Translations under genes and position numbers: made by a program
Source: Patescibacteria group bacterium
GTDB taxonomy: Bacteria > Patescibacteriota > Dojkabacteria > J137
Direction: 5' to 3'
Assembly: GCA_963169855.1 (NCBI GenBank)
Contig: CAUJCN010000002.1
Coordinates: forward strand, 517,608 to 581,607
DNA length: 64,000 nt
The notes under the pieces: model-generated
What the model was told of the DNA's origin: nothing
The model's database searches: none
What the model saw: only the letters and a program-made list of their open reading frames with translations
In this document: positions 4,406-40,315 of the stretch, piece by piece
How the letters are laid out: each line of letters opens with the position of its first letter
Position numbering within the stretch: position 1 is the stretch's first letter

Positions 4406-4870
4406 ATGGTCAAATCTGCGGGAGTTTTATTATTCAGAACTAAGAATAAAGAGCTGGAAGTTTTTCTAGTTCATCCTGGTGGTCCATTTTTTGCAAAACG
4501 AGACAATGGAATTTGGTCTATTCCAAAAGGTGGAATCGAAGAAGGTGAATCTGATTTGGATGCTGGGAAAAGAGAATTATGGGAAGAAACGAGTCTTCAT
4601 TTGGAAGACGAACCTGAAACTAAATTCTTAGACTTAGGAACAATAAAATATTCTTCTGGAAAACAACTTCATTTTTTTGCCTTTGAATACAACGACGAAA
4701 TTGATTTCAAATCAATTACCACTTTTATAGAATTCCCTTACAAATCTGGAACTAAAATTGAAATTCCAGAAAACGACCAAGGTGGATGGTTTACTATTCA
4801 AGAAGCATTAGTTAAATTAAACAAAACTCAAGCTACAGTTTTACCTCGACTTCTAGATCTACTTAAATAG
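4406..4870 (+). CDS. NUDIX hydrolase
   Basis: Nudix box GGIEEGESDLDAGKRELWEETSL (G-x5-E-x7-REUxEExGU). Confidence 0.75.
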   Translation: MVKSAGVLLFRTKNKELEVFLVHPGGPFFAKRDNGIWSIPKGGIEEGESDLDAGKRELWEETSLHLEDEPETKFLDLGTIKYSSGKQLHFFAFEYNDEIDFKSITTFIEFPYKSGTKIEIPENDQGGWFTIQEALVKLNKTQATVLPRLLDLLK

Positions 4871-6360: not shown

Positions 6361-7893
6361 ATGGAAAATACAAGCACTACAACGGAAGAAGTAAAAAATG
6401 ATAATGTTGAGACTCCAAAAGAGCCTACAGTGGAAGTTAAAACTGAATCAAAGTTTCAAAAATTTAAAAGAAAATTTAAGAGTTTCGCAAAAACTAGAAA
6501 AGGAAAAATCGTGTTAGGGGTGGGAGGAATTTTAACTGTTGGCTCAGTAATAGGATTGGTGTTATTGTTGAGTAAAAAGCCTGGAGCTCAAGAACCTAAT
6601 ATTCAAGTCTCAGAAACAATTGCTTCAGATAAAATTTATGATAACTACGATTTTGTTTACTCAAGTGAGGACACAAGATTAATTGCGACAACTTATGATG
6701 GAGCAAAGCAACTTGAACTTGTTATAGGTGAAGCTAAGATTTTAGACTACATAATTTCTCCAGATAAACGAAAAATTACTTACGTCCTTTCTGATGTAAA
6801 TTATAAAAATAAAATTACTTCGCCAAATGTTGATATAACAAAATTCAATTTCTATCCTGTTGGCTTTAGTATTTATCAATTAGATTTAGAAACTGGAGAT
6901 AATAGCTTGATTTGGTCTAGGGATAGAATAGAGCTACCAGCTACGAATCAACGACTATACAAACAAAAAGAAGTAATTCTCCCTGACAGCTACGCGATTG
7001 GATATGACTGGAATGGAATGCCATACAGTTACCCTGTAAGTTATTCCGAATTTATTGACGATATCGAGGGTGGGTACATTAGTACCTATTTGCCTTACGA
7101 CTTATCTATGTTATTGACGAGAGGTGATATTAGACTAATAAATTACAGCGACACTGGCGCGTCTATCTTGTTCCTTGCCGAAAGTAAGTTGTTTTCATTT
7201 AGCAATACTTCAGAAACTCTCGCAGAAATTTCTGGAGAAGAACAGATTAATAATTGTTTCCCAGGATACTTAAGGTTTTTCAGCAATATTATCTTTCACC
7301 ATACTCAATGCGGAACTACAATCTTTAGTGTCACGAACAATTCACTGGCAAAATATTCTGGGTTGCAAGTAAACAATGGGGAGTTAAAACCTTTGCAAGC
7401 TACTACTCAGGGAAACCTTTTAGCTGAAGTAAATTACTATGGCTATCCTAGACAATCCCCAGACAGTTTGAACTTTGTAAATCTTTCAACAAATTCTATA
7501 AACAAAATCCAAGATCTTGCGGACGAAGATTCAGCAAAAGAGCTTGAAGTCATAAGATCAGAAAACATTTACACAATCCTTGCTAGCGACATTACTGAAC
7601 CTTCTGGACAAATCGTAAACCAAAATATTAAGTTAATGAAATACAATGCAGATTCTAATTTGTTTGAGGTAGTATCAACTTTGATTCTACCTGCAGATGC
7701 TGGGAATCTAATTTACGATGAATCTACAAACTCTCTTACCTTTTTTATTACCTATCGTTCAACTAGTCAGGTGATAATTGAGTATAAAACGGTAAATCTA
7801 GAAACTATGAAAGAGACTTTGCTATCGACTACGAAAGCTCCTTCAGATTCTGTACTAGTGTATAGACCTAAACTGTTAGGATTAAGAAACTAA
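6361..7893 (+). CDS. Membrane-anchored extracytoplasmic protein (510 aa), hypothetical
   Basis: Lys-rich N-terminus, then a single TM segment IVLGVGGILTVGSVIGLVLLL and a large Ser/Thr/Asn-rich domain. Confidence 0.5.
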   Translation: MENTSTTTEEVKNDNVETPKEPTVEVKTESKFQKFKRKFKSFAKTRKGKIVLGVGGILTVGSVIGLVLLLSKKPGAQEPNIQVSETIASDKIYDNYDFVYSSEDTRLIATTYDGAKQLELVIGEAKILDYIISPDKRKITYVLSDVNYKNKITSPNVDITKFNFYPVGFSIYQLDLETGDNSLIWSRDRIELPATNQRLYKQKEVILPDSYAIGYDWNGMPYSYPVSYSEFIDDIEGGYISTYLPYDLSMLLTRGDIRLINYSDTGASILFLAESKLFSFSNTSETLAEISGEEQINNCFPGYLRFFSNIIFHHTQCGTTIFSVTNNSLAKYSGLQVNNGELKPLQATTQGNLLAEVNYYGYPRQSPDSLNFVNLSTNSINKIQDLADEDSAKELEVIRSENIYTILASDITEPSGQIVNQNIKLMKYNADSNLFEVVSTLILPADAGNLIYDESTNSLTFFITYRSTSQVIIEYKTVNLETMKETLLSTTKAPSDSVLVYRPKLLGLRN

Positions 7894-8873
7894 AACTTCT
7901 TGTACCACTCATTCATAGAAGTAATTACATCTTCTATTGAATGTTCAGCTTTCCAGTTGAGCAGTGTATTAGCTTTTGTTGGGATTGTAATTGCTTTCCC
8001 AACATCGCTTGGTCTTCGAGGTGCAATCTTATACTGGAAATCTTTATCTACAATTTCTTTAAACTTCTCCATTATTTCTAAAACTGAATAACCAGTTCCT
8101 GTTCCTAAATTAAAAACATTAAATCCAGGATTATTTTGCATATACTCAATTGCTTTTAAATGGGCAGAGCACAAATCAATTACGTGAATGTAGTCTCGAA
8201 TTCCGCTTCCATCTGGAGTATCGAAGTCTGTTCCAAAAACTGAAAATTCTGTTGGTTTTATTTTGTAATATGATAGAAACAAAGCTGCAAAAATACTTGT
8301 GTTTGTTGTAGATGGATCTCCAATTGATCCGTCCATTGCGTTGCCACAAACATTAAAATACCTTAAGGCAGTTGCGTTCAATCCAAATGCTTGATTCGAA
8401 TATTCTAAAAGTTTTTCGCAAGCTAGTTTCGAATATCCATACGGAGCAGTAGGTTCTGTAGGAGATTCTTCTGAAAGCACTCCTGTTTCGCTGAATTTAT
8501 AGACATTTGCAGTAGAAGAGAATACAAAATTTTTAATTCCCTTTTCCTTGGCAAACTTTACAAGATTGGTTGTTCCGCCAATATTGTTGTCGTAATATTT
8601 TTCTGGAAATTCTACCGATTCTGGAATTGATTTTAACGCGGCAAAATTGATAATCGCATCTAGTTCAACATCAATTTTCAATAAGTCTTCATCATTTCTA
8701 ATATCCAATTGCTCAAACCTGAATTCACCGTATTTTTTTCTAAGCGAATCAATATTTTTTAAATCGGATGTCGATAAGTTGTCTATAACAAATGGTGTGT
8801 GACCTTTTTCTAAGAGTAGAGCAACCATATGAGATCCGATGTAACCCGCACCTCCAGCAACAAGAATATTCAT
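7890..8873 (-). CDS. galE: UDP-glucose 4-epimerase-like NAD-dependent epimerase/dehydratase
   Basis: N-terminal Rossmann motif MNILVAGGAGYIGSHMV; SDR catalytic segment YGYSKLACEKLL; length 327 aa. Confidence 0.7.
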   Translation of the reverse strand: MNILVAGGAGYIGSHMVALLLEKGHTPFVIDNLSTSDLKNIDSLRKKYGEFRFEQLDIRNDEDLLKIDVELDAIINFAALKSIPESVEFPEKYYDNNIGGTTNLVKFAKEKGIKNFVFSSTANVYKFSETGVLSEESPTEPTAPYGYSKLACEKLLEYSNQAFGLNATALRYFNVCGNAMDGSIGDPSTTNTSIFAALFLSYYKIKPTEFSVFGTDFDTPDGSGIRDYIHVIDLCSAHLKAIEYMQNNPGFNVFNLGTGTGYSVLEIMEKFKEIVDKDFQYKIAPRRPSDVGKAITIPTKANTLLNWKAEHSIEDVITSMNEWYKKF

Positions 8874-8968: not shown

Positions 8969-9820
8969 ATGAAAAATGATGTTAGTGTATACGAACCCAA
9001 TCAAAGATTAAAGACTGGAATCCTTTCTTCGTACATAATGATGATTCGGAACATAGTTGCCTCGAGAGAGCTTATCTATCAGCTATTCAGAAGGGACTTT
9101 GTGTTAGCTTATAAAAAATCATTTTTGGGATTCAGCTGGGTGTTGATATCTCCTATAGTCGGAATTCTTTCTTGGCTACTACTTAATGGAACTGGTGTTT
9201 TAAATCCTGGAGATTTACCAATTGATTTTGCACCTTACGTTTTACTTACATCATCGCTTTGGGGATTGTTTATGGGATTTTACTCCTCTGCACAAGCAAC
9301 TTTGGATGCTGGAAGCGGATTTATTAATCAGGTAAAATTCCCTCACGAAGCACTTTTGGTAAAGCAGACAGCTCAGCATTTAGCAAACTTCTCACTCACA
9401 TTTTTGGTAAGCGTTGTTACTTTGCTAATTTTTGGAATCGTTCCTAATATTACTATTGTTCTTTTCCCAATTGTGATTCTTCCATTATTCTTCTTAGGAG
9501 GAGGAATTGGGTTAGTGATGTCTGTTATCAATGTTGTTACACCAGACTTTGTTAGATTCTTTGGGGTATTTTTAGGTTTTGTTTTTTATGCAACACCAAT
9601 TATTTATTCTCCTAATATCGAAAATCCCCTATTACAGTCCTTAATCCAGATTAATCCACTTACTTATTTGATTGGTGCTGCTAGGGACATTATAGTTAGT
9701 GGAAGCATTGGAAACATTGATAGATTTTTAGCCACTAGTATAGTTTCCTTTGTAATATTCTTAATCTCTCTCAGATTGTTTTTTGTTTCAGAGGATAAAG
9801 TTATCGAAAGAATGATTTAA
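8969..9820 (+). CDS. ABC-2 type polysaccharide/teichoic-acid exporter permease (Wzm/TagG-like)
   Basis: Six hydrophobic segments, 283 aa, immediately upstream of and coupled to a Wzt-like ATPase. Confidence 0.7.
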   Translation: MKNDVSVYEPNQRLKTGILSSYIMMIRNIVASRELIYQLFRRDFVLAYKKSFLGFSWVLISPIVGILSWLLLNGTGVLNPGDLPIDFAPYVLLTSSLWGLFMGFYSSAQATLDAGSGFINQVKFPHEALLVKQTAQHLANFSLTFLVSVVTLLIFGIVPNITIVLFPIVILPLFFLGGGIGLVMSVINVVTPDFVRFFGVFLGFVFYATPIIYSPNIENPLLQSLIQINPLTYLIGAARDIIVSGSIGNIDRFLATSIVSFVIFLISLRLFFVSEDKVIERMI

Positions 9821-9823
9821 ATT

Positions 9824-11035
9824 ATGGAAGAAAATCTAGTAGTAAGAGTAGAAAATTTATCGAAAAAATTCACAAGAAATATTAAACATACTTTGATCTA
9901 TGGGACAATTGATGTTCTTAAAAGTATGATTGGCTTCAAACCGAACACTGCAAAACTCCGAAGAGGCGAATTTTGGGCACTTAAGAATATAAATTTTGAT
10001 CTTAAGAAGGGAGAAGTCCTTGGAATTATTGGAGAGAATGGTTCAGGAAAATCTACACTTTTACGTCTGTTAACAGGAATCTTTCCCCCAGATATTGGGA
10101 CGGTAACTATCAGAGGACGAATTGGTGCACTGATTGCTGTAGGAGCAGGTTTCAATCCACATATGAGTGGATATGAAAACATTTACCTCAATGGAACCAT
10201 TTTAGGTGCAACAACCAGCGAGATACACGATAAGATAGAAGAGATAGTGAATTTTGCCGATATTGGCGAGTTTATACATGCCCCTGTTTCTACATATTCC
10301 TCTGGGATGAGAGTTAGACTTGGGTTTTCTTGCGCAATTCATTTCACGCCAGAAATATTGTTGATCGATGAGGTTTTGAGTGTCGGAGATCTAAATTTCA
10401 GACAAAAATGTTTTAGGAAAATTGACGAGATAAGAAAAGATACGTCGATCATTTTCATTTCACACAATATGAATCAAGTACAAAGATTGTGTGACCGAGT
10501 AATTGTAATGGACCATGGTGAAATAATTTTTGATGGTGAGACTTCAAAAGGAGTATCGCATTATTTAGAAATAAATAATCAGACATCGCAACAAAATTCC
10601 GACAGTTTCTTGATTGTGAACGAAACAACCGAATCTATTTCAAAATTGAATTTAGAATTGATCGATGAGAGTGGAGTGGCTAAAGCTTCTTTGAACTACC
10701 TTGAGACTTTGAAAATACTAACTTCTTTTGAAAGTAACGTTGAAATGGAAGAAGTCTTGATTGCCTTTGTCCTGTACTCTTCTGACGGAGTGGCTATAAC
10801 CAAATTCGGACCAGAAGGAGCGACTAAGATAATTAAGGGAATCAATAAATTTAGCATTGAAGTTACACAGCCATTTTTCTTACCAGGGAACTATTACATC
10901 GGTTTTAAATGGAGAGAGAAAAATAACTCAGTAATCGCTGACGCTACTACGAAAAGTTTCCGAATTACTCAGCCAAAGGACTACACAGTATCTGTTGGGC
11001 TGATCGATTCTAAATCAGTTCTAACAAAGCATTAA
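9824..11035 (+). CDS. ABC exporter ATP-binding protein with C-terminal carbohydrate-binding domain (Wzt/TagH-like)
   Basis: Walker A GENGSGKSTLLRLLTG, signature YSSGMRVRLGF, Walker B LLIDEVLSVGD; about 150 aa beta-rich C-terminal extension (403 aa total). Confidence 0.8.
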   Translation: MEENLVVRVENLSKKFTRNIKHTLIYGTIDVLKSMIGFKPNTAKLRRGEFWALKNINFDLKKGEVLGIIGENGSGKSTLLRLLTGIFPPDIGTVTIRGRIGALIAVGAGFNPHMSGYENIYLNGTILGATTSEIHDKIEEIVNFADIGEFIHAPVSTYSSGMRVRLGFSCAIHFTPEILLIDEVLSVGDLNFRQKCFRKIDEIRKDTSIIFISHNMNQVQRLCDRVIVMDHGEIIFDGETSKGVSHYLEINNQTSQQNSDSFLIVNETTESISKLNLELIDESGVAKASLNYLETLKILTSFESNVEMEEVLIAFVLYSSDGVAITKFGPEGATKIIKGINKFSIEVTQPFFLPGNYYIGFKWREKNNSVIADATTKSFRITQPKDYTVSVGLIDSKSVLTKH

Positions 11036-11050
11036 TTTTAGTATTTGCTT

Positions 11051-11863
11051 ATGCAGTCATTTATTATACGTTCGGTTGGGGAAAGAACTACCATGTTCTT
11101 GGAAAATCAAATTAGAAGTTATTTTCCAGGTTCCGAAATTATCATCATCAAGGAAAGTCCTTTCACTGCAGCACTTACTTCAACATATACGATTGGCAAA
11201 GAAATGAAAGGTGACTGGATTTCAGTTTTAGATGCTGATGTAATAATAGACATTTCAGGATTCAAGAAATTATTAGAAAAAGCCAAGAGTCAGCCTTCGC
11301 AAGTATTTGAGGTGCAAGGAATAGTTTTAGACAAAATGTTTGGAAAATTTAGACCAGCTGGCGTACATATTTACAATAAAAAGCATTTCGACAGAGCGGT
11401 TGAATTTGTACCTAAAAAGGAAGAGTCACTCCGACCAGAAAGCTTTGTGATGAGAAAGATGGCAGCTGAAGGTTTTCCTTTTGTTCAAACTAATATAATT
11501 AGCGGACTACATGATTTCGAACAATTTTATAAAGATGTTTATAGAACTGGGTTTATACATGGGAAGAAGCATTTAGCGTATGAATCTGAACTTACAACTT
11601 TTTGGAACTCTACAACTGATCCCGATTACCAAGTTGCGCTGATTGGTTTTAATGCAGGTAAGAGTGACAAAGAAATAAACTTTGTAACAAACGAAATTGA
11701 CGAAAGTCCTTTGTTACAGTATTTCTCAGATGCCAAAATTGAAGAGAAGAGTGCCGATGTAAGTTTAACAAAGATCGACATAGAAACAATTATAAAAAAC
11801 CATTTGAATCTTGTAGATAGGATTTCTTATAATTTAATTAAAACAAAATTTACATATAAATAA
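11051..11863 (+). CDS. Hypothetical protein, possibly GT-A-like (DxD)
   Basis: VLDADVIIDISG resembles a DxD motif. ATG at 11051; the ORF-track start 11045 is TTG. Confidence 0.35.
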   Translation: MQSFIIRSVGERTTMFLENQIRSYFPGSEIIIIKESPFTAALTSTYTIGKEMKGDWISVLDADVIIDISGFKKLLEKAKSQPSQVFEVQGIVLDKMFGKFRPAGVHIYNKKHFDRAVEFVPKKEESLRPESFVMRKMAAEGFPFVQTNIISGLHDFEQFYKDVYRTGFIHGKKHLAYESELTTFWNSTTDPDYQVALIGFNAGKSDKEINFVTNEIDESPLLQYFSDAKIEEKSADVSLTKIDIETIIKNHLNLVDRISYNLIKTKFTYK

Positions 11864-11870
11864 AACTTCT

Positions 11871-12443
11871 ATGACAAACCTAGACGATTTAATCAAAGCT
11901 GATGATATTTTAATTGATTGCGGAGCAAATGTAGGACAAGAAACGTTACCTGCACTGGAAGCTGGTGCCGAAGTATACTCATTTGAACCTAATCCATATG
12001 CATTTAAAGAGTTACTTACCAAAGCATACTTACATCCTAAAGCCCACCTATATCCTGCTGCAGTTTTGGATACAAATTCTGAAATGAATCTTTATTTGCA
12101 TCAAAATAATGATGAAGACCCTGTAACTTGGTCCACTGGATCCTCATTGATGAGTAGCAAACGAAATGTGAATCAAGAAAATTTTGTAACTGTTCCTGTT
12201 ATCGACTTAATTAGTTTTATTTCAAGATTTGACAAGCAAGTAAAAGTTCTTAAGTTAGATGTGGAGGGAGCTGAGTACATTATTTTAAAAGCATTGATTC
12301 AAAGTGGAGTATACAAGAAAATTGATCATATTCTAGTGGAAACTCATGACGGTAAAATTCCCGAGCTAGATGGTGAAAAGGAAGCACTAGATAAGTTGAT
12401 TTTGGAACACGGCGTAACAAATATTGATCGGACTTGGAAATAA
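11871..12443 (+). CDS. FkbM-family methyltransferase
   Basis: ILIDCGANVGQETL resembles FkbM motif I (D-x-G-A-N-x-G); 190 aa. Confidence 0.6.
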   Translation: MTNLDDLIKADDILIDCGANVGQETLPALEAGAEVYSFEPNPYAFKELLTKAYLHPKAHLYPAAVLDTNSEMNLYLHQNNDEDPVTWSTGSSLMSSKRNVNQENFVTVPVIDLISFISRFDKQVKVLKLDVEGAEYIILKALIQSGVYKKIDHILVETHDGKIPELDGEKEALDKLILEHGVTNIDRTWK

Positions 12444-13159
12444 TGAGTAGCCAAAAAAACTTTCTTTTGGAGTTAAAAAACAAAGTAATATCTGACAGCT
12501 CTTATTCAGTTAGGCGATATTTTGTTGATAAGTTTTTTTACGAAAGTGTAGATCTATTGCCAGAAAAATCTCTAATTTTAGATATTGGCGGGGTAAAGAA
12601 TAGTAAACGAGGGATGTTTGATATAAGAAAATTCAATCTTGAGGTTAAATATTTAAACATATCCGAAAAAGCTGAACCAGACATAATGGCCGATGCAACG
12701 AGTATACCTGTGGAAGACAATTCATTTGACGGAGCAATCCTTGGCGAAGTTTTGGAGCATATTAGTCACCCAGAAAAGGTTTTAAAAGAAGCACACAGAG
12801 TTATTAAAACTGGAGGAAATCTTTTGATAACTACACCATTCCTTTTTCAAATTCATGGAGATCCTGATGATTATTTAAGATATACCGACTCTTGGTACAA
12901 AAAGATTCTTGAAGAAATAGGTTTTGAGATTGTAAAGATAGATAGACACGGAGGGTATTTTTCAGTTTTAACTAATCAGCTAAAGAATTTCTTTCATCAA
13001 AGTAATTTTGAGAATTTTAGAATTAGATTCTTTTCAAAATTATTACTGAAATACCTTATTAAGAATTTCTTATCACTTGACGAGAAAGCTAAAAACTATT
13101 CAGGAAATCTTTTATCCGGATCTACAACTGGATTCGGAATTGTTTGCGTAAAAAAATGA
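12443..13159 (+). CDS. Class I SAM-dependent methyltransferase (Methyltransf_11-like)
   Basis: ILDIGGVKN motif I, then AILGEVLEHISHPEKVLKEAHRVIKTGGNLLITTP. ATG at 12443 overlaps the TAA of the previous gene; the ORF-track start 12434 is TTG. Confidence 0.65.
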   Translation: MSSQKNFLLELKNKVISDSSYSVRRYFVDKFFYESVDLLPEKSLILDIGGVKNSKRGMFDIRKFNLEVKYLNISEKAEPDIMADATSIPVEDNSFDGAILGEVLEHISHPEKVLKEAHRVIKTGGNLLITTPFLFQIHGDPDDYLRYTDSWYKKILEEIGFEIVKIDRHGGYFSVLTNQLKNFFHQSNFENFRIRFFSKLLLKYLIKNFLSLDEKAKNYSGNLLSGSTTGFGIVCVKK

Positions 13160-14178
13160 ACTGGTTCTTCAAAAGAAAAACGAAAATTCATTATGTAGCG
13201 GATGGAGTAGACTGGGTTATTTCCGAGATTGGGAAAAGCCTGCAGAAACACCTTGCAGATTATGAAGTGATTGTAAGTCCAGATTTTTCGCAAGCTACTG
13301 TAAATGACATTATTCACTTCTCAAATAGATATCAAATCGATCAAATAACCGAAGAAATCAAAAGTAAGAAGATATTGATAACTTATTATCACGGCGAAAA
13401 TGATGATCACGAACTTGTAGAAAAATTCAAAAGCAAAATGCACTTAATTAAATTCATTGTGACTTCAAACGAACTTACTAAGAAGCATTTGCTTGAAAGT
13501 GGTTTTGAGGAGAGTAAAATTGTGGTTATTCCTATCGGGATTGAAGTTAGTGATTTCATAGAAGTAAATGCTGAAGAAAAAGCTAAGTTAAGAACCGAAT
13601 TTGGTGTTCCAAACGATTCGTATGCGATTGGCTCTTTTGTAAAAGATGGAAATGGTTGGGGAGATGGAATGGAACCGAAGCTAATTAAAGGACCAGACGT
13701 TTTTTGTGATGTTATAGAAAAATTGAATCAGCAATTGAATGGAAAAGTTTTTGTAGTTTTGACTGGACCAGCAAGAGGATATGTAAAAAAGAGACTAGAT
13801 GATGCAAAAATTCCTTACATTCATAAATTCCTAGATGATTATTCTGAGATTGTAAATTACTACAATTTGATTGATCTATACATTATTCCTGCAAGACTAG
13901 AAGGTGGTCCAAGATCAGTTTTAGAAGCACCAGCTGCAGGAGTTCCTGTTGTTTCGACACGAGTTGGAATGGTTCCTGAAATAATTGAAAATGGTGTTTC
14001 TGGATTTATAACAGAGATTGAAGATGTTGATAAATTAACTGAATACTCAAAACAAGTTTTATTAGATAAAGATCTGGCTAAAAAGTTCGTAGAAGAGGCA
14101 AGAAAATCGATATCGAGGTATGATTATGGATATATCTCTAACGAATTTAATGATCTTATTTATAAAAAGCTTAAGTAA
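13156..14178 (+). CDS. Glycosyltransferase family 4-like (GT-B)
   Basis: C-terminal E-x7-E-type motif LEGGPRSVLEAPAAGVPVVSTRVGMVPEII. ATG at 13156, ATGA overlap with the upstream gene. Confidence 0.65.
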   Translation: MNWFFKRKTKIHYVADGVDWVISEIGKSLQKHLADYEVIVSPDFSQATVNDIIHFSNRYQIDQITEEIKSKKILITYYHGENDDHELVEKFKSKMHLIKFIVTSNELTKKHLLESGFEESKIVVIPIGIEVSDFIEVNAEEKAKLRTEFGVPNDSYAIGSFVKDGNGWGDGMEPKLIKGPDVFCDVIEKLNQQLNGKVFVVLTGPARGYVKKRLDDAKIPYIHKFLDDYSEIVNYYNLIDLYIIPARLEGGPRSVLEAPAAGVPVVSTRVGMVPEIIENGVSGFITEIEDVDKLTEYSKQVLLDKDLAKKFVEEARKSISRYDYGYISNEFNDLIYKKLK

Positions 14179-14180
14179 AT

Positions 14181-15080
14181 ATGAAGATCCACATAATCTT
14201 TAAAGAAGTAGATGGACCTTGGGGAGGCGGAAATCAGTTTATAAAAGCTTTACGGAGAGCTTTGATAAAACAAAACGTTTACACAGATAATCCTGAAGAA
14301 AGCGATGCAATTCTTTTCAACAGTCATCACAATGTTGAAAAAATTGTTGAGTTCAAATCGAGATTCCCAAACAAGTTATTTGTTCACAGAATCGATGGAC
14401 CTGTTTGCTTAGTTCGAGGAACACCGAATATGGAAACGGATCACGAAGTTTTTGACTTGAACAATCAGTTTGCTGGAATGTCTATTTTACAATCGTCTTG
14501 GAGTTTGAACGCTTCATATTTATTAGGATTTAAACCAGTCAACCCTGTTTTGATTAACAATGCTTCTAACAAAGAAATCTTTCATAAAAATGGCAAGTCT
14601 CCTTTCAATAGAGATAAAGTAAAGGTTATTAGTTCAAGTTGGTCATCAGCAAAAAACAAAGGTTTAGAAACTTTCCAGTGGTTGGATGAGAACCTGGATT
14701 TCTCAAGATACTCATACAGTTTCGTAGGTAGAGTAGATGCAGAATTCAAAAATATTCAGAAGCTTGAACCACAAGCATCTGACGAATTAGCTAATACATT
14801 GAGATCTCACGATATTTTCATAGCACCAAACATTAACGATACTTTCTCTAACGCGATAAATGAGGCAGTAACTTGCGGATTACCAGTTGCTTACTTTAAT
14901 AGCGGAGGAAATGCTGAAGTTGTTCAACAAGGAGGAATTCCATACAACAATTTTGAGGAATTATTGAAGGCACTTGATGTTATTTCCGACAATTACGAAG
15001 TCTACAGATCTTTGATTAAACCTAGAGACATTGATGATATAGCGTCTCAGTATATTTCAGCAATTAAAAAAAATCTTTAA
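14181..15080 (+). CDS. Putative glycosyltransferase (GT-B-like)
   Basis: AINEAVTCGLPVAYFNSGGNAEVV resembles a GT-B C-terminal nucleotide-sugar binding segment. Confidence 0.4.
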   Translation: MKIHIIFKEVDGPWGGGNQFIKALRRALIKQNVYTDNPEESDAILFNSHHNVEKIVEFKSRFPNKLFVHRIDGPVCLVRGTPNMETDHEVFDLNNQFAGMSILQSSWSLNASYLLGFKPVNPVLINNASNKEIFHKNGKSPFNRDKVKVISSSWSSAKNKGLETFQWLDENLDFSRYSYSFVGRVDAEFKNIQKLEPQASDELANTLRSHDIFIAPNINDTFSNAINEAVTCGLPVAYFNSGGNAEVVQQGGIPYNNFEELLKALDVISDNYEVYRSLIKPRDIDDIASQYISAIKKNL

Positions 15081-16087
15081 TGTTTTGGAATAGAAGAACC
15101 CAAAAGAAATTGTTTATACCAAAGGTGGATAAATTCTATGGTGGTCCAAAAACCTTTCTGACAAATTTGTCTAAGTACCTCCACGAAAAGGGAGTAAAAA
15201 CCATTTCTGACCCCTTAAATTCAGATTTAATTTTCTTCCCGGTTGAATTTCCTAAGGAAATTTTGGAGAAAGCATCAAAAAAAAAGATTCCGATAGTCCA
15301 AAGACTGGATGGAGTATTCTACGAGCCTGAGCACAATAAAGCTCAGTTAGAATTCGATAATTACGTAAAGGAGATCTATTTAAAGTACGCAAACTACGTT
15401 ATATTTCAAAGTGAATATAGTAAATCTCAATGTTTTTTTAAATACGGAGAAAAAAGCCCCGACCAGTTTTCGCTTATTGTTAATGGTGTGGATAAAACCA
15501 TATTCTATCCTAGTGATTCCGAGCATGATCCTACAAATTTTATTCGTTTTGTTACCACAGGTAATATCAGAAGAAAGGAGATGATCGAACCTATTGTACT
15601 GGCACTAGACGAGCTTAGAACAGAATTTAACTTTGAATTGACAGTTGTGGGAAAAATTACTGATGAACTGAAACCATATCTCAACCGAGACTATCTAAAC
15701 TACGTTGGACCTAAAGAACTTCAAGAAGTTTCGAAAATTTTGCGAAACTCAGATATCTTTTTATTCTCTTTTTTAAATCCTGCATGCCCGAACTCAGTAA
15801 TTGAAGCAGTATCTACAGGGTTGCCAGTTGTTTCATTCGATTCCGGCTCAATGAAAGAGCTTGTAGGGTTCAATAAAGATCTGTTGGCCTTTGTATCAGA
15901 TGATTTGTTTCAAAATGTTAAGGATTTCAAATACGAGAAACTAAAAGAAAAAATTAAACTTTGTGTCGATAATTTTAGAAAGTATAAAAAGGAATCATAC
16001 TTACAATCTTCACTTTACTCATTCGAAACTTGCGGAGATCAGTATATGGAGACTTTTAATGCTATTATTAATCAGAAACCTAAATAA
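15080..16087 (+). CDS. Glycosyltransferase family 4-like
   Basis: NSVIEAVSTGLPVVSFDSGSMKELV. Confidence 0.55.
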   Translation: MFWNRRTQKKLFIPKVDKFYGGPKTFLTNLSKYLHEKGVKTISDPLNSDLIFFPVEFPKEILEKASKKKIPIVQRLDGVFYEPEHNKAQLEFDNYVKEIYLKYANYVIFQSEYSKSQCFFKYGEKSPDQFSLIVNGVDKTIFYPSDSEHDPTNFIRFVTTGNIRRKEMIEPIVLALDELRTEFNFELTVVGKITDELKPYLNRDYLNYVGPKELQEVSKILRNSDIFLFSFLNPACPNSVIEAVSTGLPVVSFDSGSMKELVGFNKDLLAFVSDDLFQNVKDFKYEKLKEKIKLCVDNFRKYKKESYLQSSLYSFETCGDQYMETFNAIINQKPK

Positions 16088-16106
16088 TATATTTAATTTC
16101 TTTCAA

Positions 16107-17153
16107 ATGAAAATTTTAGTAACAGGAGCGGCTGGATTTATTGGATTCCATTTAACAAAACAACTTTTAGATAACGGTGAAGATGTTGTAGGCATTGATT
16201 CTATTAACACATATTACGACCCTGCTTTAAAAATCGCAAGACTAACTGAGCTTGGTATTGCTAGTGACAAATTAGAAAGTGGAGTTATTAAAAGTAGAAC
16301 TTATGAAAATTTCAAATTTCTAAGAATTGATTTAACAGAATACGATAAAATTTTGAAACTTTTTGCTGATAGTAAATTTGATGTTGTAATTAACCTGGCA
16401 GCGCAAGCAGGTGTTCGATACGCACTACAGAATCCTCAAGTTTATGTTGATAGTAATTTAAATGGATTCTTTAATATCCTTGAATGTTGCAAAACCTATC
16501 CTGTAAAACATTTGATTTTCGCTAGTAGTTCTTCAGTATATGGTTTGAATGAAGAGATTCCTTTCTCAGAACACCATAGTACCGATCATCCTACAAGCCT
16601 TTATGCAGCTACAAAGAAAGCGAATGAAGTATTAGCACATTCATATAGCCACATTCACGGAATACCAACTACTGGATTAAGATTCTTTACAGTTTACGGA
16701 CCGTGGGGAAGACCAGACATGGCATTATTTAAATTCACAAAGAACATTCTAGAAGAAAATGAGATTGAAATTTTTGGACATGGAGAAATGTATCGAGACT
16801 TTACTTATGTTCAAGATATTGTAGAGGCAATTTCGAGATTAGTTGACAAAGCACCGGAAAAAAACATTCACTGGGATGCAAAAAAACACGATCCTGCAAC
16901 ATCTTCTTCACCATACAGAATTTTAAATATTGGAAGAGGGCAGCCGGTAAAATTACAGGATTTCGTAGATATTCTTGAAAAAAAACTCAACAAGAAAGCT
17001 ATTAAGAAATACGTTGATATTCAGCCTGGGGAAGTTGTTACTACATATGCAGATACATCTGAATTGGAAAAATTAACTGGATTCAAACCAATTGTGAATA
17101 TAGAGCAAGGTGTATCTGATTTTGTCGATTGGTACTTAAACTACTATAAATAA
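16107..17153 (+). CDS. NAD-dependent epimerase/dehydratase, UDP-glucuronate 4-epimerase-like
   Basis: MKILVTGAAGFIGFHLTKQLLDNGEDVVGIDSINTYYDPALKIARL is typical of Cap1J/WbnF-type epimerases; SDR YAATKKANE. The ORF-track start 15963 overlaps the previous GT; ATG at 16107 is preferred. Confidence 0.7.
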   Translation: MKILVTGAAGFIGFHLTKQLLDNGEDVVGIDSINTYYDPALKIARLTELGIASDKLESGVIKSRTYENFKFLRIDLTEYDKILKLFADSKFDVVINLAAQAGVRYALQNPQVYVDSNLNGFFNILECCKTYPVKHLIFASSSSVYGLNEEIPFSEHHSTDHPTSLYAATKKANEVLAHSYSHIHGIPTTGLRFFTVYGPWGRPDMALFKFTKNILEENEIEIFGHGEMYRDFTYVQDIVEAISRLVDKAPEKNIHWDAKKHDPATSSSPYRILNIGRGQPVKLQDFVDILEKKLNKKAIKKYVDIQPGEVVTTYADTSELEKLTGFKPIVNIEQGVSDFVDWYLNYYK

Positions 17154-17155
17154 GC

Positions 17156-18181
17156 ATGAGTTCACCAAAAATCTCGGTTCTAATGTCTGTTTATAATGGC
17201 GAAGACTTTTTGGCTGAAACTATCAAAAGTGTTTTAAATCAAACCTTCACAGATTTTGAATTCTTAATAATCGACGATGGTTCTTCAGATTCCTCTGGTG
17301 AAATAGTGAAATCTTTCAACGATGAAAGGATCGTTTTAATAAGGAATGAAAGTTCTTTAGGATTAACTAGAAATCTAGCAAATGGAGTAAATTCAGCGAA
17401 AGGAGAGTACATTGCAAGAATAGATGCAGATGATCTAATGATGCCAACAAGGTTAGAAAAGCAGTTCACATTTATGGAGAACAATTCTGAGATTTCCGTT
17501 GTTGGTAGTGCGATGCAAACTTTTGGAGACATCGATCTAATTTGGGGGAATCCAGAAGGAGATGCTTATATAAAATCTGGGCTATTGTTTTCATCGGCAC
17601 TTTATCACCCTTCTGTGATGATAAGAAAGTCATTTTTAGTTAATAGTAATACAAATTACAATCCCGATTTTAAATATGCCCAAGACTATCGATTGTGGAC
17701 AGATGTTCTTATTGCAAACGGAAAATTCGCGAATGTTTCCGAGCCTCTTACGAAATATAGAGTACATAGTAGTAGTATCACTTCTACAAAGAAACCTGAA
17801 CAAATTGCACTTGCAGATAGAATTAGAAGAGAACTTGCAGAAAGACTAGGGATTGAATTCACAGATAAGGAGATCGCATTGTTAAAAGTGATCAACAATT
17901 CGTACACAGGTTTAGACCTGAAATCTATGGATACTATCTTCTGCAAATATATTAGCGGGAAGCATGTTCCAGAACATTTGAATATTCAATTCCTAAAGAT
18001 CTATTTAAGAAAAAAAATAATAGAGTTTTTGAGATCATCTGGACTTGAAACAGAAGCATTATGGAAAGCCTTGCAGTCTTGTAAAATTTTCACTTTATTC
18101 GAAAAATTTAAATTCTTTCTGTTAAAATTTAAATACTCAGATCCAAATGTTTATTTAGATAGGGTCGCTCACAATTTATAA
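17156..18181 (+). CDS. Glycosyltransferase family 2
   Basis: SVLMSVYNGEDFLAETIKSVLNQTFTDFEFLIIDDGSSDSS; DAD motif ARIDADDLM. Confidence 0.65.
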   Translation: MSSPKISVLMSVYNGEDFLAETIKSVLNQTFTDFEFLIIDDGSSDSSGEIVKSFNDERIVLIRNESSLGLTRNLANGVNSAKGEYIARIDADDLMMPTRLEKQFTFMENNSEISVVGSAMQTFGDIDLIWGNPEGDAYIKSGLLFSSALYHPSVMIRKSFLVNSNTNYNPDFKYAQDYRLWTDVLIANGKFANVSEPLTKYRVHSSSITSTKKPEQIALADRIRRELAERLGIEFTDKEIALLKVINNSYTGLDLKSMDTIFCKYISGKHVPEHLNIQFLKIYLRKKIIEFLRSSGLETEALWKALQSCKIFTLFEKFKFFLLKFKYSDPNVYLDRVAHNL

Positions 18182-18200
18182 ATAAGATTTTCAACTTCTC

Positions 18201-19556
18201 ATGAGTAATGAATCAGCATTAAAAGAACAAATTTTAAAATTAAAAAGGGAAAAAAGATATCTAGAAGATCAGTTATCGTTAATAACATCGTCCAACGTTT
18301 TTGAATTTTCTTTACTATTTAAAACCTCACTGAAGAAACCTTGGTTACTACCATTACTTCCTTTTAGAATAGTATGGTTTATTTTGCAGATGTTAAGGAG
18401 ATACTTTATTGTCTTTGTATTGGCTCCTTTGAGAAGAATCTGGTATAAGAAGTATCCACCAAAGAAAGTTGCATTTCTTTGCTATTCGGGACAAACGGGG
18501 GGAGGAGAAAGAGTTGCTCTTGGACATTTGAAGAAAGCTTCCCAGCATTACAGAACTGATGCATTTTACATAACTAAACCAGGTCCAATTTCTAAAGATG
18601 CTGCAAACTACGCTGGCAAAGTTGTATTCAACAGAAGACCTGAGTATCAGTTGGCTGCCTATAGAGCACTTTACATTACTCTTTGTATGCCAGATATTGC
18701 ATTAATTAAGAAACTCAACCCTGATATTAAGATTGCTGTTGTTATTCACGATCACCTCTCAGGTTGGATTGATTATTTCCAGGGTTATTCACACACACCA
18801 CTTATCGATAAATTTATCTGCATTAGCAAGCTAGTTCGAGATAAATTACTGGATGCAGTGCCCGATCTCGATCCAAATAAAGTTGAAGTTCTTTACAATC
18901 CTTACTTCTTTGGAAACGATGATTTGCAAAATGTAAAGCAGGATGATAATAAGGAAATGGTTTTCGGATATGTTGGAAGAATAAGTCCTGAGAAAAATCC
19001 AGTTTCTCTTGTCAGAGTTTTCAAAAAGTTCACCAAAGATCATCCTGAAGTAAAACTTCAAATTGTTGGAGGAATCGATGAAAGTCTGGGACATCTAAGA
19101 AAGTATAGAGATTTAATGATTGCGGAAATCGGTGATAACAAAAATATTAGTTATCTGGGATATTCAAACGATACTAGCGGATTTATCAAAAAGCTTTACG
19201 GTATGGTTTTTTCATCATTTATAGAAGGAATCTCTGTAGCTGCAACAGAAGCTTTGAGTTACGGAGTACCCGTTCTAACCTCAAATGTTGGTGCTATGGG
19301 TGAAATTGTAAACGAAGGTTTCAATGGATACCATTATGACATCGATGAAATTTCTGTGAATCCATTCGACATTCGAGAGAACTACCAATTCTTTACAGAA
19401 GCTGATGAAAAAAGATTTATCGAAGCATTAGAGAAATTCGTAAAGACAAAATGGGACAGCAAAGCTATTGCAAAAGACGCAATGGATAAATTTTCAGAAA
19501 ATGTAGCTTACGAGAATTTCTATAAAATATTTAATGGGATGTTAACAACTAACTAA
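18201..19556 (+). CDS. Glycosyltransferase family 4-like with N-terminal coiled-coil and membrane segment
   Basis: EGISVAATEALSYGVPVLTSNVGAMGEIV (E-x7-E); N-terminal LKEQILKLKREKRYLEDQL, then a hydrophobic segment. Confidence 0.6.
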   Translation: MSNESALKEQILKLKREKRYLEDQLSLITSSNVFEFSLLFKTSLKKPWLLPLLPFRIVWFILQMLRRYFIVFVLAPLRRIWYKKYPPKKVAFLCYSGQTGGGERVALGHLKKASQHYRTDAFYITKPGPISKDAANYAGKVVFNRRPEYQLAAYRALYITLCMPDIALIKKLNPDIKIAVVIHDHLSGWIDYFQGYSHTPLIDKFICISKLVRDKLLDAVPDLDPNKVEVLYNPYFFGNDDLQNVKQDDNKEMVFGYVGRISPEKNPVSLVRVFKKFTKDHPEVKLQIVGGIDESLGHLRKYRDLMIAEIGDNKNISYLGYSNDTSGFIKKLYGMVFSSFIEGISVAATEALSYGVPVLTSNVGAMGEIVNEGFNGYHYDIDEISVNPFDIRENYQFFTEADEKRFIEALEKFVKTKWDSKAIAKDAMDKFSENVAYENFYKIFNGMLTTN

Positions 19557-20551
19557 TGTTCGGAATGTTTTCAGAACCAAAACAATATACAGTTCTTCAT
19601 ACAGTAAATGATACCGATAGTAAAGTTCTTGGCGTTACAATTGATCACTGGTTTGGGGTGAAAAGAGCTACATACACAAATTTCTCTAATGTCCTTGAGT
19701 TAGAAAATGTTTCTAGGGGAGATTATATTGAACAAATTCTTCCAGTTTTAGAAAACTATACAACGATTGTATTCAATGGAATGACTGAACTATTTTCAGC
19801 GATTATTGATAAATTACAAGGAAAAAGGATTTTCGTAATGTACCATGGATCTCCAACTTTACATTCTGACAATGAATACGAGAACTTCATGTTTAAATTG
19901 ATTCTACAGAAATCTGTTGAAAACAAAATCGAAGGAATCATTTTTGTGAAGGAAGGATTAGAGAAAATCTTTGCCAGGCTTGGCCACAAAGCATTTCATC
20001 TACCGAACAAAATAGGTGAACTACTTGATAAAGAAGTTTCAACGCCTTCCATATTTAAAGTAGGAGCTTTATCTCAGCATTTACTGTGGAATAAAAATCT
20101 TTATAATCAAATTCTAGCTGGCTTGTCTGTTAAGGATACGGAAGTTTTCGTTAATGTCGATAAAATTAAACTTGGGTATTTGGCCGAAGAGCCTAGAATC
20201 AAAAGTGTAGGTGTGATTGCTGATCCAAAGGAGTTTCAGAACTTTTTAGCAACTCTTGATATAAACCTTAACGTTACTTTAACTGAGGCTTACCCAATGA
20301 ATATTATCGAATCCCTCCAGGTTGGGATCCCTTGCCTAACAAGTAGAACTAATCATATTTACGATAGAAATACTGTTCTTTCAAACTATTTGATTGTTGA
20401 TGAGTTTGATAATCCGCAGGCGATCACTGCAAAACTTCACGATATTATGAACAACTACGACGAGATTGTGACCGAAATTTTGAAGTTTAGAACCACCTTA
20501 AAGGCAGAAAATCAGCAGAAGTGGGATGAATTCCTAGCAACTCTAAATTAG
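19556..20551 (+). CDS. Hypothetical protein, weak GT-B-like C-terminus
   Basis: MNIIESLQVGIPCLTSRTNHIY; no firm motif. Confidence 0.3.
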   Translation: MFGMFSEPKQYTVLHTVNDTDSKVLGVTIDHWFGVKRATYTNFSNVLELENVSRGDYIEQILPVLENYTTIVFNGMTELFSAIIDKLQGKRIFVMYHGSPTLHSDNEYENFMFKLILQKSVENKIEGIIFVKEGLEKIFARLGHKAFHLPNKIGELLDKEVSTPSIFKVGALSQHLLWNKNLYNQILAGLSVKDTEVFVNVDKIKLGYLAEEPRIKSVGVIADPKEFQNFLATLDINLNVTLTEAYPMNIIESLQVGIPCLTSRTNHIYDRNTVLSNYLIVDEFDNPQAITAKLHDIMNNYDEIVTEILKFRTTLKAENQQKWDEFLATLN

Positions 20552-21771
20552 GCTTTTAAAACCGAACTGTATAAATCCTCGTAAGCTTTTCTAAAATCAT
20601 CAGTAGATGGAAGTTTTACATTGTTCAATTTAGCAACCTCGTGATTAAACAATTCTCTGTTTTTATTGAAGAGCTGAAGCAGCTTCCAAGATTCTTTTAC
20701 GAAGTTTTCCTCACTATAAACTGCTCCAGCATTATAAGTTTTTAATCTATATCCCAACGCTCCGTTATCAGTAACTATTGGAAAACATTTGTTAGTTATA
20801 GCTTCGGATAACGCTAAATTGTAAGTTTCTGTAACCTGGCTTGGAATAACTACAACATCAACGTTTTGTAGAAGCTCTGGGAGATCATTAGTATTGTACT
20901 CACCAATCAAATTAACGACCTTTGGAATTGCCTGCTTGTTAAATCCATCCATAACTTTTCCTACAATAGACCATTCAAATTCGTTTGAGCTATCGTTTTT
21001 AACTAGATTTATGAAAAGCTGAGAACCTTTATGCTCAGCAAATAAACCTAAGTATACGATTCTGATTTTTTCGGAATTTGATTTTTGATTTAGTTCATTC
21101 GGAACAACATTCTCAACTGTGTGAATAGGAACTTCTTTTAGAAAAGTAGTTTTGATAACTTTTGTCACAAAAGATGAAACTGAAATAAATCCTTTGATGT
21201 TTGGTACTAACTCTTCGAGATACTTTTTTCTTCGTTGATAATATTGCTGATCAACAAATTTAGAGTTATTTAGGAATTCGGAAACATTAAATTCTTTAAA
21301 ATTGAACTTTTCTGGGGTAGGGTAGAAAATTCCAAAATCGTGCAAGTGGACAAAAAGTGGATAAGTTTGACCTAATCTCAAAACGCTTATTGGGTAGCCG
21401 TTGATATTCTGAATATCAATAACAGCTGGTTTAATCTTCGCAACAATTTTGTTCAGATGTACTTCGAGCGCAGAGTTATTAAGTTTGAAGAAATCCTTTT
21501 TGACAAAGTTTTTGATTGTGAAGATGTCTTCATTAAAGTAGATTTTGGTTTCACCTTCCAGGATCACAACCACAACATGATCGAATTCGTTTACCTGCTC
21601 AATAATCGTTCTCGTTACCTTTTCTGTTCCCGCAGTGCCTCTTTCAAGTGGAGAGTGTAGTAGATGAAGAACAATAGGCTTAGTAGTTGCTAATTTTATT
21701 GAGAAAAAGTTGAATCTCTCTTTTAGAGCCGAAAGCCAATAGCTAAATTTAGAGTTAAGTTTCTCTATCAT
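20548..21771 (-). CDS. Putative glycosyltransferase (GT-B, GT4-like)
   Basis: VVVIPSQVTETYNLALSEAITNKCFPIVTDNGALGY (E-x7-E). Tail-to-tail 4-bp overlap with 19556..20551. Confidence 0.5.
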   Translation of the reverse strand: MIEKLNSKFSYWLSALKERFNFFSIKLATTKPIVLHLLHSPLERGTAGTEKVTRTIIEQVNEFDHVVVVILEGETKIYFNEDIFTIKNFVKKDFFKLNNSALEVHLNKIVAKIKPAVIDIQNINGYPISVLRLGQTYPLFVHLHDFGIFYPTPEKFNFKEFNVSEFLNNSKFVDQQYYQRRKKYLEELVPNIKGFISVSSFVTKVIKTTFLKEVPIHTVENVVPNELNQKSNSEKIRIVYLGLFAEHKGSQLFINLVKNDSSNEFEWSIVGKVMDGFNKQAIPKVVNLIGEYNTNDLPELLQNVDVVVIPSQVTETYNLALSEAITNKCFPIVTDNGALGYRLKTYNAGAVYSEENFVKESWKLLQLFNKNRELFNHEVAKLNNVKLPSTDDFRKAYEDLYSSVLKA

Positions 21772-21825
21772 TAAGAAATTTTAACCGAAGATTAAACGAT
21801 TGACCAATTTAATCTTTTTATTGGC

Positions 21826-22566
21826 TTATTTTGCGAATAGATTGAATCTGATAATTTCCTTCAGAGCTTTGTACCCATCCTTGAAAGCACTCATTTTCTT
21901 ACCTTCTTCAATACTTCTTGGGAAATAACTAATAGGGACAATTCCAAATTTAAGTCTTTTTCCATCTTTTTTGAATCTGGAAAGTCTTGCTGTAATTTCT
22001 GGCTCAACTCCAAAATTACTTTTCGAGATGATTTTTGTTGCAACTTCTCTTGCGATATCACCTCTTAAAAGCTTGTAACAAACTTCCATGTCTGGAATCC
22101 AGACTCGAAGTCTTGGGTAAGTGAAAATGTTTGAGATGAAAGATAATCCTTTATTTCCGATGTAATTCTTCCAATAAATAACTTTATTCTTCTTGCCAAA
22201 TCTGTTTCCATAAACCACATCTAAGTCTTTTTCCATCATTAAATTCACTAGATCTACAATCTCGTTTGGTTCGTATTCAAAGTCAGCATCTTGAATCACT
22301 ACTAAATCTCCAGTAGATTTTAAGATTCCATTTCTTACAGTCTGAGATTTTCCTGAGTTCTTTTCGTTATCGTAAGCAAAAATCAGACCTTTGTTTTCTT
22401 CTTCCAATTTATGAGCAATTTCCGAAGTAGAGTCTTTAGAACCATCGTTCACAATAATGATTTCTCTTTCTAAATTATGAGGAAACTTAACGTCGATAAC
22501 TTTCTGAACAAGTTCTCTTAAAGTTTTAGATTCGTTATAGGCTGGGATTACTAGTGATAATTTCAT
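21826..22566 (-). CDS. GT2 polyprenyl-phosphate sugar synthase-like (DPM1/GtrB/ArnC-like)
   Basis: MKLSLVIPAYNESKTLRELV...IIVNDGSKDST and QDADFEYEPNE; 246 aa, the size of the soluble catalytic core. Confidence 0.65.
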   Translation of the reverse strand: MKLSLVIPAYNESKTLRELVQKVIDVKFPHNLEREIIIVNDGSKDSTSEIAHKLEEENKGLIFAYDNEKNSGKSQTVRNGILKSTGDLVVIQDADFEYEPNEIVDLVNLMMEKDLDVVYGNRFGKKNKVIYWKNYIGNKGLSFISNIFTYPRLRVWIPDMEVCYKLLRGDIAREVATKIISKSNFGVEPEITARLSRFKKDGKRLKFGIVPISYFPRSIEEGKKMSAFKDGYKALKEIIRFNLFAK

Positions 22567-22633
22567 AATTATGTTTTTTATAAGTCTATATAGGATACTA
22601 GATGAAATCTAAATTCTCAATAGAACTGGCCGA

Positions 22634-39260: not shown

Positions 39261-39261
39261 T

Positions 39262-40236: not shown

Positions 40237-40266
40237 AATTCATTGCCCTGTATTGCTTACAAAAAA

Positions 40267-40290
40267 ATTGTATACTAGAATGTATACAAT
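40267..40290. promoter_or_regulatory. Perfect inverted repeat ATTGTATAC-N6-GTATACAAT, candidate operator
   Basis: 9-bp arms at 40267-40275 and 40282-40290, 26 nt upstream of the ATG of the wHTH gene at 40316. Confidence 0.4.
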
Positions 40291-40315
40291 AAGTTTAACT
40301 TTTAACCACAGGATA

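Follow-up and report, generated by a model that had tools for sequence, protein, structure and literature searches.

Organization of the locus

We analysed a 64-kb stretch (64,000 nucleotides) of contig CAUJCN010000002.1, hereafter the window, with a focus on a run of genes that opens with an ATP-binding cassette (ABC) exporter of the Wzm/Wzt type, continues with an overlooked gene, here called ORF270, and two S-adenosylmethionine (SAM)-dependent methyltransferases, and may encode a system that caps a glycan and exports it. The genes from 8969 to 20551 are tightly packed and all lie on the plus strand, and the segment 8969-13159 forms the start of this run. Identical protein sequences are present on 7 to 10 independent contigs, one of which is an 817,811-bp NCBI contig; they are therefore real genes and not chance open reading frames (ORFs). 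The GC content is 33-37% across the whole window, as expected from the low GC reported in a preliminary description that had been made from the sequence alone. The segment contains the following features:

8969..9820, plus strand: Wzm, ABC-2 type permease (PF01061 ABC2_membrane, E=8.7e-15)
9824..10600, plus strand: nucleotide-binding domain (NBD) of Wzt, residues 1 to ~258 (ABC_tran, E=6e-23)
10601..11035, plus strand: C-terminal carbohydrate-binding domain (CBD) of Wzt, residues ~260-403, predicted beta-sandwich (Wzt_C, family profile, model)
11051..11863, plus strand: ORF270, 270 amino acids (aa), GT-A-like, with a D61-A-D63 motif (gene call; no Pfam match)
11871..12443, plus strand: FkbM-family SAM methyltransferase, 190 aa (PF05050, E=2.4e-15; TIGR01444)
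12443..13159, plus strand: class I SAM methyltransferase, 238 aa (Methyltransf_11, E=9e-13; Methyltransf_23, E=3.5e-9)

Wzm, Wzt, the FkbM enzyme and the class I methyltransferase had all been named in the preliminary description, and Pfam matches and recurrence on independent contigs place them where it had them. It had also put the methyltransferases directly after Wzt, which requires correction, since ORF270 (11051-11863) intervenes.

The Wzm/Wzt exporter and its probable host

A 3-base gap separates the genes for Wzm and Wzt. Wzt comprises 403 aa (9824-11035, plus strand), and its best solved relative in a search of PDB sequences is Aquifex aeolicus Wzt (8dku/6amx, E=7.6e-66). The closest named relative, encoded in a Candidatus Dojkabacteria (WS6) genome of 862 kb, shares 47-48% identity with it, and Wzm is 51-62% identical to the Wzm proteins adjoining the closest Wzt relatives. 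Judged by these sequence relationships, the operon is a Wzm/Wzt ABC exporter of a glycan, of the ordinary type. The host is probably a small-genome, Dojkabacteria-like bacterium of the candidate phyla radiation; the small genome proposed earlier fits both the 818-kb contig and the 862-kb genome of the closest named relative. The literature search returned no mention of Wzt in Patescibacteria and a single mention of FkbM together with Wzt.

We considered whether the ATPase belongs to a TagGH/TarGH-type exporter of wall teichoic acid, given that the organism is probably monoderm-like and that the top NCBIfam names of the ATPase are teichoic-acid export ATPases (PRK13545, 214.6 bits; TagH, 179 bits). 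However, these scores lie far below the respective cut-offs of 538 and 320 and cover the NBD alone, whereas the closest solved structures are those of Wzt and the C-terminal domain is matched too. Moreover, Pfam scans of the cluster found neither a glycerol-/ribitol-phosphate transferase (Glyphos_transf) nor CDP-alditol genes. The teichoic-acid reading was rejected as extremely improbable.

The C-terminal domain of Wzt

Cap-gated export by Wzt CBDs is a well-studied quality control in Gram-negative O-antigen assembly. Transporters of the CBD type export only chains that are capped at the non-reducing end (PMC9445017, PMC11231755), and the known caps include methyl, methylphosphate and 3-deoxy-D-manno-octulosonic acid (Kdo) groups (PMC9445017, PMC3482155, PMC11231755). 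The preliminary description had noted a beta-rich C-terminal extension of the ATPase and taken it to be carbohydrate-binding-like. Structure prediction bears out the first point. In an AlphaFold model of Wzt, based on an alignment of 60 sequences and with a mean predicted local distance difference test (pLDDT) score of 86.7, a helix at residues 240-256 is followed by 12 beta strands and no helix in residues 263-402, and the blocks of the C-terminal part have pLDDT values of 81-95 up to about residue 380. The top Foldseek matches of the full-length model are Aquifex WzmWzt structures (E~1e-37, ~397 aligned columns).

Profile comparisons agree with the carbohydrate-binding character. The C-terminal segments of the window Wzt and its 20 closest relatives were aligned (alignment A3), and Wzt_C was matched by all 21 segments at E<=0.01, the best at 6e-12. 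Searched against PDB, the A3 profile retrieved the A. aeolicus CBD (8dky/6o14, E=8e-9), the corresponding full-length structures (7k2t/8dku, E=5e-8) and the Raoultella terrigena CBD (5hno, E=1.6e-4); apart from solved Wzt CBDs, nothing scored below E=0.4. The family profile alone succeeded here, as the isolated CBD used as a single sequence had no match in PDB (best E=1). Almost all full-length Wzt homologues of 43-52% identity carry a precomputed Wzt_C match. Because of the profile matches, the all-beta model and the full-length Foldseek match, we assign the C-terminal ~140 residues, on sequence and model, as a genuine, divergent Wzt CBD.

For the window protein itself, the Wzt_C score is a marginal miss of the Pfam gathering threshold. 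Full-length Wzt matches Wzt_C (PF14524) at residues 276-395 with E=1.8e-5 and 25.2 bits, below the cut-off of 30.4, and the isolated CBD reaches 28.9 bits with profile positions 14-142 of 143 aligned. The profile search suggested earlier thus upholds homology to the Wzt_C family, whereas the individual score stays under the threshold. This score, together with one loop that is shortened relative to the relatives and the absence of a Trp that is nearly invariant near their C-terminus, would be compatible with a degenerate or structural remnant, in which case export would be coupled to synthesis without cap recognition and the methyltransferases would be unrelated decorations. A remnant is nevertheless difficult to reconcile with a complete beta-sandwich modelled with high confidence, with an alignment to Wzt_C that runs almost end to end, and with a domain that is full length in all relatives of 43-52% identity, and we regard this explanation as improbable.

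CBD pockets are specific to the cap and to the serotype. In the Aquifex CBD, the methyl pocket is formed by T346, A348 and H350 (PMC9445017). A manual reading of the alignment places G, K and R at these positions in the window Wzt. With the Aquifex pocket residues replaced and pockets being cap-specific, the ligand of the window CBD is not readable from its sequence.

ORF270 and its relatives

The gene call for ORF270 (270 aa) is present on all source contigs, and Pfam has no family that matches it. A word-index search returned 20 relatives, of which 0 were annotated. An exhaustive profile search retrieved 1,396 representative clusters (50% identity) at E<=1e-3, including 889 at E<=1e-30, and tblastn against a plasmid collection gave no match. 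The family is widespread and uncharacterised, and it has neither a Pfam model nor a close solved structure. The AlphaFold model of ORF270 has a pLDDT of 91.4 and a predicted template modelling (pTM) score of 0.89, and its longest helix has at most 16 residues.

The position of ORF270 next to Wzt is conserved. The three closest Wzt loci (L006, L007, L008) all contain Wzm, Wzt with a CBD, an ORF270 homologue and FkbM; the ORF270 homologue lies at most one gene from Wzt in all three, the FkbM homologues are 42-48% identical to that of the window (3/3 loci), and the glycosyltransferase content varies. A metagenome scan seeded with ORF270 yielded 35 loci of at least 8 kb, many of those without Wzt being incomplete upstream. 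Wzm and Wzt lie within 10 kb of ORF270 in 14 of the 35. Each of these 14 Wzt proteins is extended (404-474 aa), and a purpose-built hidden Markov model of the CBD detects the domain in 10. In about 12 of the metagenome loci, ORF270 is immediately adjacent to a class I methyltransferase.

Gene fusions point in the same direction. One of the three closest Wzt loci (L008) encodes, directly after a Methyltransf_11 gene, a 476-aa fusion of ORF270 and FkbM, with an ORF270-like N-terminal half (E=1e-22) and a C-terminal half that is 43% identical to the FkbM enzyme of the window (E=5e-48). Ten longer proteins of the ORF270 family carry fused domains. The partners are GT4 (three proteins), FkbM plus GT4, and a class I methyltransferase, and further ones are a sulfotransferase-like region, TOD1/MUCI70-like domains and B12-binding radical-SAM domains. 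From the comparative data, ORF270 is the most likely partner of FkbM. By its genomic neighbourhoods, ORF270 is a glycan-assembly module with genetic links to both extended Wzt and modifying enzymes.

This genomic behaviour of the family suggests a new cap-forming module. More specifically, ORF270 proteins could be the core of such a module for CBD-gated ABC exporters, paired or fused with interchangeable FkbM, class I methyltransferase, B12/radical-SAM or sulfotransferase enzymes; we put this forward tentatively, as a possibility short of a probable one. If true, the modification on the terminal, capping residue of the glycans would differ between lineages.

A locus from Flavobacteriales (L004, 5259-8894) has an ORF270 homologue flanked by sulfotransferase-like and nonulosonic-acid genes (NeuB, CMP-sugar synthetase), and in one protein (P0269) a sulfotransferase-like region is fused to ORF270. 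From this context and this fusion, the family may therefore pair with sulfation besides methylation.

The two methyltransferases

The FkbM enzyme scores above the curated cut-offs of both of its models (PF05050, 57.5 bits versus 22.7; TIGR01444, 90.5 bits versus 37.7), and the domain spans residues 16-181 of 190. Its nearest relatives (45-54% identity) form a well-populated subfamily of stand-alone proteins of ~200-215 aa from many phyla. For relatives of 42-54% identity, all neighbourhoods examined are glycan clusters, and several adjoin an extended Wzt. One such cluster (L091) contains a Wzt_C-bearing Wzt, several FkbM genes and GT4 and GT2 genes, and another (L093) is a glycosyltransferase/methyltransferase cluster of Spirochaetota.

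In a scan of reference genomes seeded with FkbM, five loci (L030 from Flavobacterium aquatile, L046, L049, L050 and L064) have a Wzt within 10 kb, and these Wzt proteins are all extended, with 418-602 aa. Wzt is directly flanked by FkbM in three of them (L030, L049, L050), and the nearest FkbM gene lies ~1.6-2.7 kb from Wzt in L046 and L064. The closest association is a 649-aa single protein (P0116; L009 2068-4017, L010 254-2203) that combines a Wzt NBD, a Wzt_C CBD and an FkbM domain, which would amount to a physical coupling of the cap reader to a candidate cap writer. The gene following it encodes a class I methyltransferase that shares 41% identity with the class I enzyme of the window across the aligned core.

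The start codon of the class I methyltransferase at 12443 overlaps the FkbM stop codon by one base, in the sequence TAATG at 12441-12445, as had been described. Its domain matches cover residues 44-194 of 238, and relatives of 30-41% identity occur in Wzt-linked clusters (L005, L009, L091). On the evidence of their sequence relatives, whose neighbourhoods are glycan clusters, the FkbM and class I methyltransferases group with glycan enzymes and not with small-molecule ones, yet they are not of the WbdD type. The glycan-type character assumed at the outset is thus retained, all of the nearest FkbM relatives being found in glycan clusters.

A proposed capping mechanism and its alternatives

We propose that the locus is an ABC-transporter-dependent polymerase-terminator operon in which ORF270 and FkbM, perhaps with the class I methyltransferase, form a methylated cap at the chain end that is read by the CBD, a reading that we consider reasonably probable by analogy with characterised systems. 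Working in the cytoplasm, the ~ten downstream glycosyltransferases would assemble the glycan on a lipid carrier, and the finished glycan would be exported by Wzm and Wzt, with the CBD of Wzt admitting chains that bear a specific cap at their non-reducing terminus. The cap would be made by the three-gene block right after Wzt. ORF270 would probably add or position a terminal residue, the FkbM methyltransferase would act together with ORF270, because both form one polypeptide in a relative (L008), and the class I methyltransferase would add another O-methyl group. The methylated terminal residue would stop elongation. We take the host lineage to be probably devoid of lipopolysaccharide (LPS), and an S-layer or cell-wall acceptor would therefore be likelier than LPS.

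The gene identities, the homology and fold of the CBD, the ORF270-FkbM fusion and the linkage to extended Wzt are established. It is plausible, by analogy, that one or more methyl groups are located at the end of the chain as opposed to internal residues, and likewise that the CBD reads them. As the main alternative, the transporter could be cap-dependent while the two methyltransferases modify internal repeat-unit residues, as is the case in polymethylated polysaccharides, and the cap could be of another kind, such as a distinct sugar that ORF270 adds by itself. The fusions of ORF270 to GT4, TOD1-like, sulfotransferase-like and radical-SAM domains fit such a general glycan-building module, and two related clusters (L005, L091) hold up to five or six methyltransferases, exceeding the need of a single cap. 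The FkbM family is also found away from Wzt, as in the LPS-core cluster (L092) that surrounds a close relative and contains a heptosyltransferase, Kdo kinase, LptFG and KdsA/B. However, ORF270 and a methyltransferase are the most consistently conserved non-transporter pair beside extended Wzt, whereas the glycosyltransferases vary, and a direct fusion of Wzt, CBD and FkbM exists. Furthermore, in the characterised CBD systems that have a methyltransferase, this enzyme acts as the terminator (PMC9445017, PMC7820976, PMC3482155). We judge purely internal decoration to be unlikely, if worth keeping in view.

Like the LPS-core neighbourhood, and like the low Wzt_C score, missing Trp and altered pocket of the CBD, several further observations weigh against a methylated cap made by the three-gene block. 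The putative assignment of ORF270 as a transferase draws only on a DxD motif and a fold match that is weak. Its model matches PDB structures at E~2e-5 and TM-scores of 0.35-0.42, and these comprise GT-A glycosyltransferases (PBCV-1 glycosyltransferase, SpsA, K4CP) as well as sugar nucleotidyltransferases (RmlA, KdsB). The D61-A-D63 motif is nearly invariant and aligns with the DxD of a GT2, but hhalign comparisons of the ORF270 profile with single sequences of this GT2, an AglJ-like GT2 and a CMP-sugar synthetase were not significant. Conservation in the three closest Wzt loci does not extend to the class I methyltransferase. An insertion is present in its SAM motif I (residues ~46-60), which reads LDIGGVKNSKRG versus LDAGxG in relatives; the motif core is DIGGVKNSKRG, versus DAGxG. 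In the FkbM-seeded scan of 76 distant loci, only about 6 have Wzt in the vicinity. Most distant FkbM loci lack Wzt within 10 kb, and FkbM is therefore associated with glycans and not diagnostic of Wzt systems. Finally, no acceptor, initiating phosphoglycosyltransferase, LCP ligase or O-antigen-ligase-like gene was found among the window ORFs scanned, which comprised all but a few short ORFs and the ribosomal-protein block.

The preliminary description had inferred a grammar of CBD transporter and terminator methyltransferase and had specified it as WbdD-type and length-controlled. The general grammar remains plausible and follows a known paradigm, whereas both specifications find no support. 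No WbdD chain occurs among the PDB sequence matches of either methyltransferase, at E<=0.01 or at E<=1, and a Pfam scan of the cluster (8969-24441) detected no kinase or Kdo-transferase domain as a source of another cap. Characterised length rulers are long coiled coils within the terminator protein (PMC11231755). ORF270, FkbM and the class I methyltransferase are all too small to accommodate such a ruler, and length control is therefore unsupported.

Comparison with characterised systems

The locus belongs to the polymerase-terminator, CBD-gated ABC pathway and is not of the WbdD type. The A. aeolicus WzmWzt system (7k2t, 8dku, 6o14, 8dky) has the same architecture, with a Wzt of 404 aa versus 403 aa here, and is the top match in both sequence and fold, but the CBD sequences are distantly related and the residues of the methyl pocket differ. 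The ligand of the Aquifex CBD is a 3-O-methyl-mannose or 3-O-methyl-rhamnose cap (PMC9445017), whereas the window contains no rhamnose or mannose precursor genes and has GalE and a second epimerase instead. The hosts also differ, that of the window being probably a candidate-phyla-radiation bacterium without LPS.

With the WbdA-WbdD-Wzm-Wzt system of E. coli O8/O9a (Klebsiella O5/O3), the locus shares the logic of a cytoplasmic polymerase, a SAM-dependent terminator and a cap-reading CBD (PMC3482155). In contrast to that system, it has no detectable WbdD homologue, kinase domain or coiled-coil ruler, and its methyltransferases belong to the FkbM type (190 aa) and the class I type (238 aa). The gene order wzm-wzt(CBD)-O-methyltransferase-glycosyltransferase of the Pseudomonas syringae common polysaccharide antigen (CPA) 'TET' operon resembles the order found here, and some isolates encode its glycosyltransferase and methyltransferase as a fusion, in parallel to the ORF270-FkbM fusion of L008 (PMC7820976). 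TET, however, involves other methyltransferase and glycosyltransferase families and acts on LPS in a diderm, and its terminator role was itself assigned by analogy (PMC7820976). The Klebsiella O4 and O7 terminators are, respectively, a GT137 Kdo transferase and a methyltransferase-kinase with a coiled coil (PMC11231755). Terminators of this group are diverse and modular and often represent new enzyme families, a pattern that ORF270 would fit. Unlike them, ORF270 is GT-A-like and not of the GT137 fold, and the locus has no coiled coil or kinase.

The S-layer glycan of Geobacillus stearothermophilus provides an example from a monoderm, in which Wzm/Wzt export is combined with a 2-O-methyl cap added by WsaE, a fused methyltransferase-glycosyltransferase (methyl-rhamnosyltransferase). 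Neither a WsaB-type oligosaccharyltransferase nor a WsaP-type initiating enzyme was found in the window.

New with respect to the characterised examples are the host lineage, the FkbM-type methyltransferase at the expected position of the terminator and the ORF270 family. To our knowledge, cap-making enzymes are known for only a few serotypes, and each newly studied system brought a new enzyme family. The locus would place cap-gated logic in a tiny-genome bacterium that probably has no LPS, and in organisms of this kind attachment to a host may involve surface glycans. The ORF270 family offers a concrete candidate for a new class of terminators. If this candidate holds, sequence could serve to predict the cap chemistry of glycan clusters across thousands of uncultured organisms; otherwise the locus is an ordinary polysaccharide operon.

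Glycan-building genes and other features of the window

The exporter and the three-gene block are embedded in the following genes:

7890..8873, minus strand: GalE, UDP-glucose 4-epimerase (TIGR01179 galE, 333.8 bits versus a cut-off of 262.3; Pfam Epimerase, E=1.7e-51)
13144..20551, plus strand: glycan-building array (Pfam matches, gene calls)
13144-16087, plus strand: three GT4 glycosyltransferases (Pfam)
16107-17153, plus strand: NAD-dependent sugar epimerase/dehydratase (Pfam)
17156-18181, plus strand: GT2 glycosyltransferase (Pfam)
18201-19556, plus strand: GT4 glycosyltransferase with an N-terminal membrane anchor, 451 aa (Pfam)
19556-20551, plus strand: GT4-like protein (Pfam)
20548..24441, minus strand: convergent block of four glycosyltransferases, one GT4 and three GT2 (Pfam, NCBIfam)

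The cluster thus totals about ten glycosyltransferases and two sugar epimerases. GalE is encoded divergently from the operon and is probably the source of UDP-Gal(NAc). One GT2 of the convergent block is a 246-aa, AglJ/ArnC-like protein (NCBIfam). In a scan of 8.7-25.5 kb for promoters and terminators, sites were fewer than in shuffled sequence, and the operon boundaries were not defined.

In the GT4 protein encoded at 18201-19556, the N-terminal ~30 residues are heptad-like and amphipathic and are followed by a hydrophobic stretch. This is the sole membrane-anchor-like or short coiled-coil-like feature in the cluster, and the protein is, by its sequence, a candidate for a membrane-associated polymerase. 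Two proteins without a family match adjoin the glycan operon. One, encoded at 4863-5876 on the minus strand, has 337 aa with a proline-rich tail at its end, and the other, at 6361-7893 on the plus strand, is a possible surface protein of 510 aa whose N-terminus forms a membrane anchor. Several window ORFs, 170-500 aa long, lack a Pfam match, in keeping with a poorly characterised lineage.

A second export-like module lies at 37696-43128 on the plus strand. It comprises two ABC2_membrane_6 permeases and an ABC ATPase and continues with a 219-aa protein without an assigned function and a protein of 738 aa that contains two GT4 modules. This could be a glycolipid or glycan system of its own.

No tRNA genes and no Rfam families at gathering score were detected in the 64-kb window. 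Two aminoacyl-tRNA synthetases have unusual domain compositions. In the valine-tRNA ligase at 1565-4402 on the plus strand (TIGR00422, 657 bits versus a cut-off of 612), residues ~470-640 form an inserted GNAT acetyltransferase domain that separates the catalytic core from the anticodon-binding part, and the NCBIfam exception model 'ileS_w_GNAT' describes the analogue of this insertion in isoleucyl-tRNA synthetase. The class Ib aminoacyl-tRNA synthetase (Trp/Tyr type) at 56145-57635 on the minus strand carries an N-terminal tRNA_bind (EMAP-like) domain.

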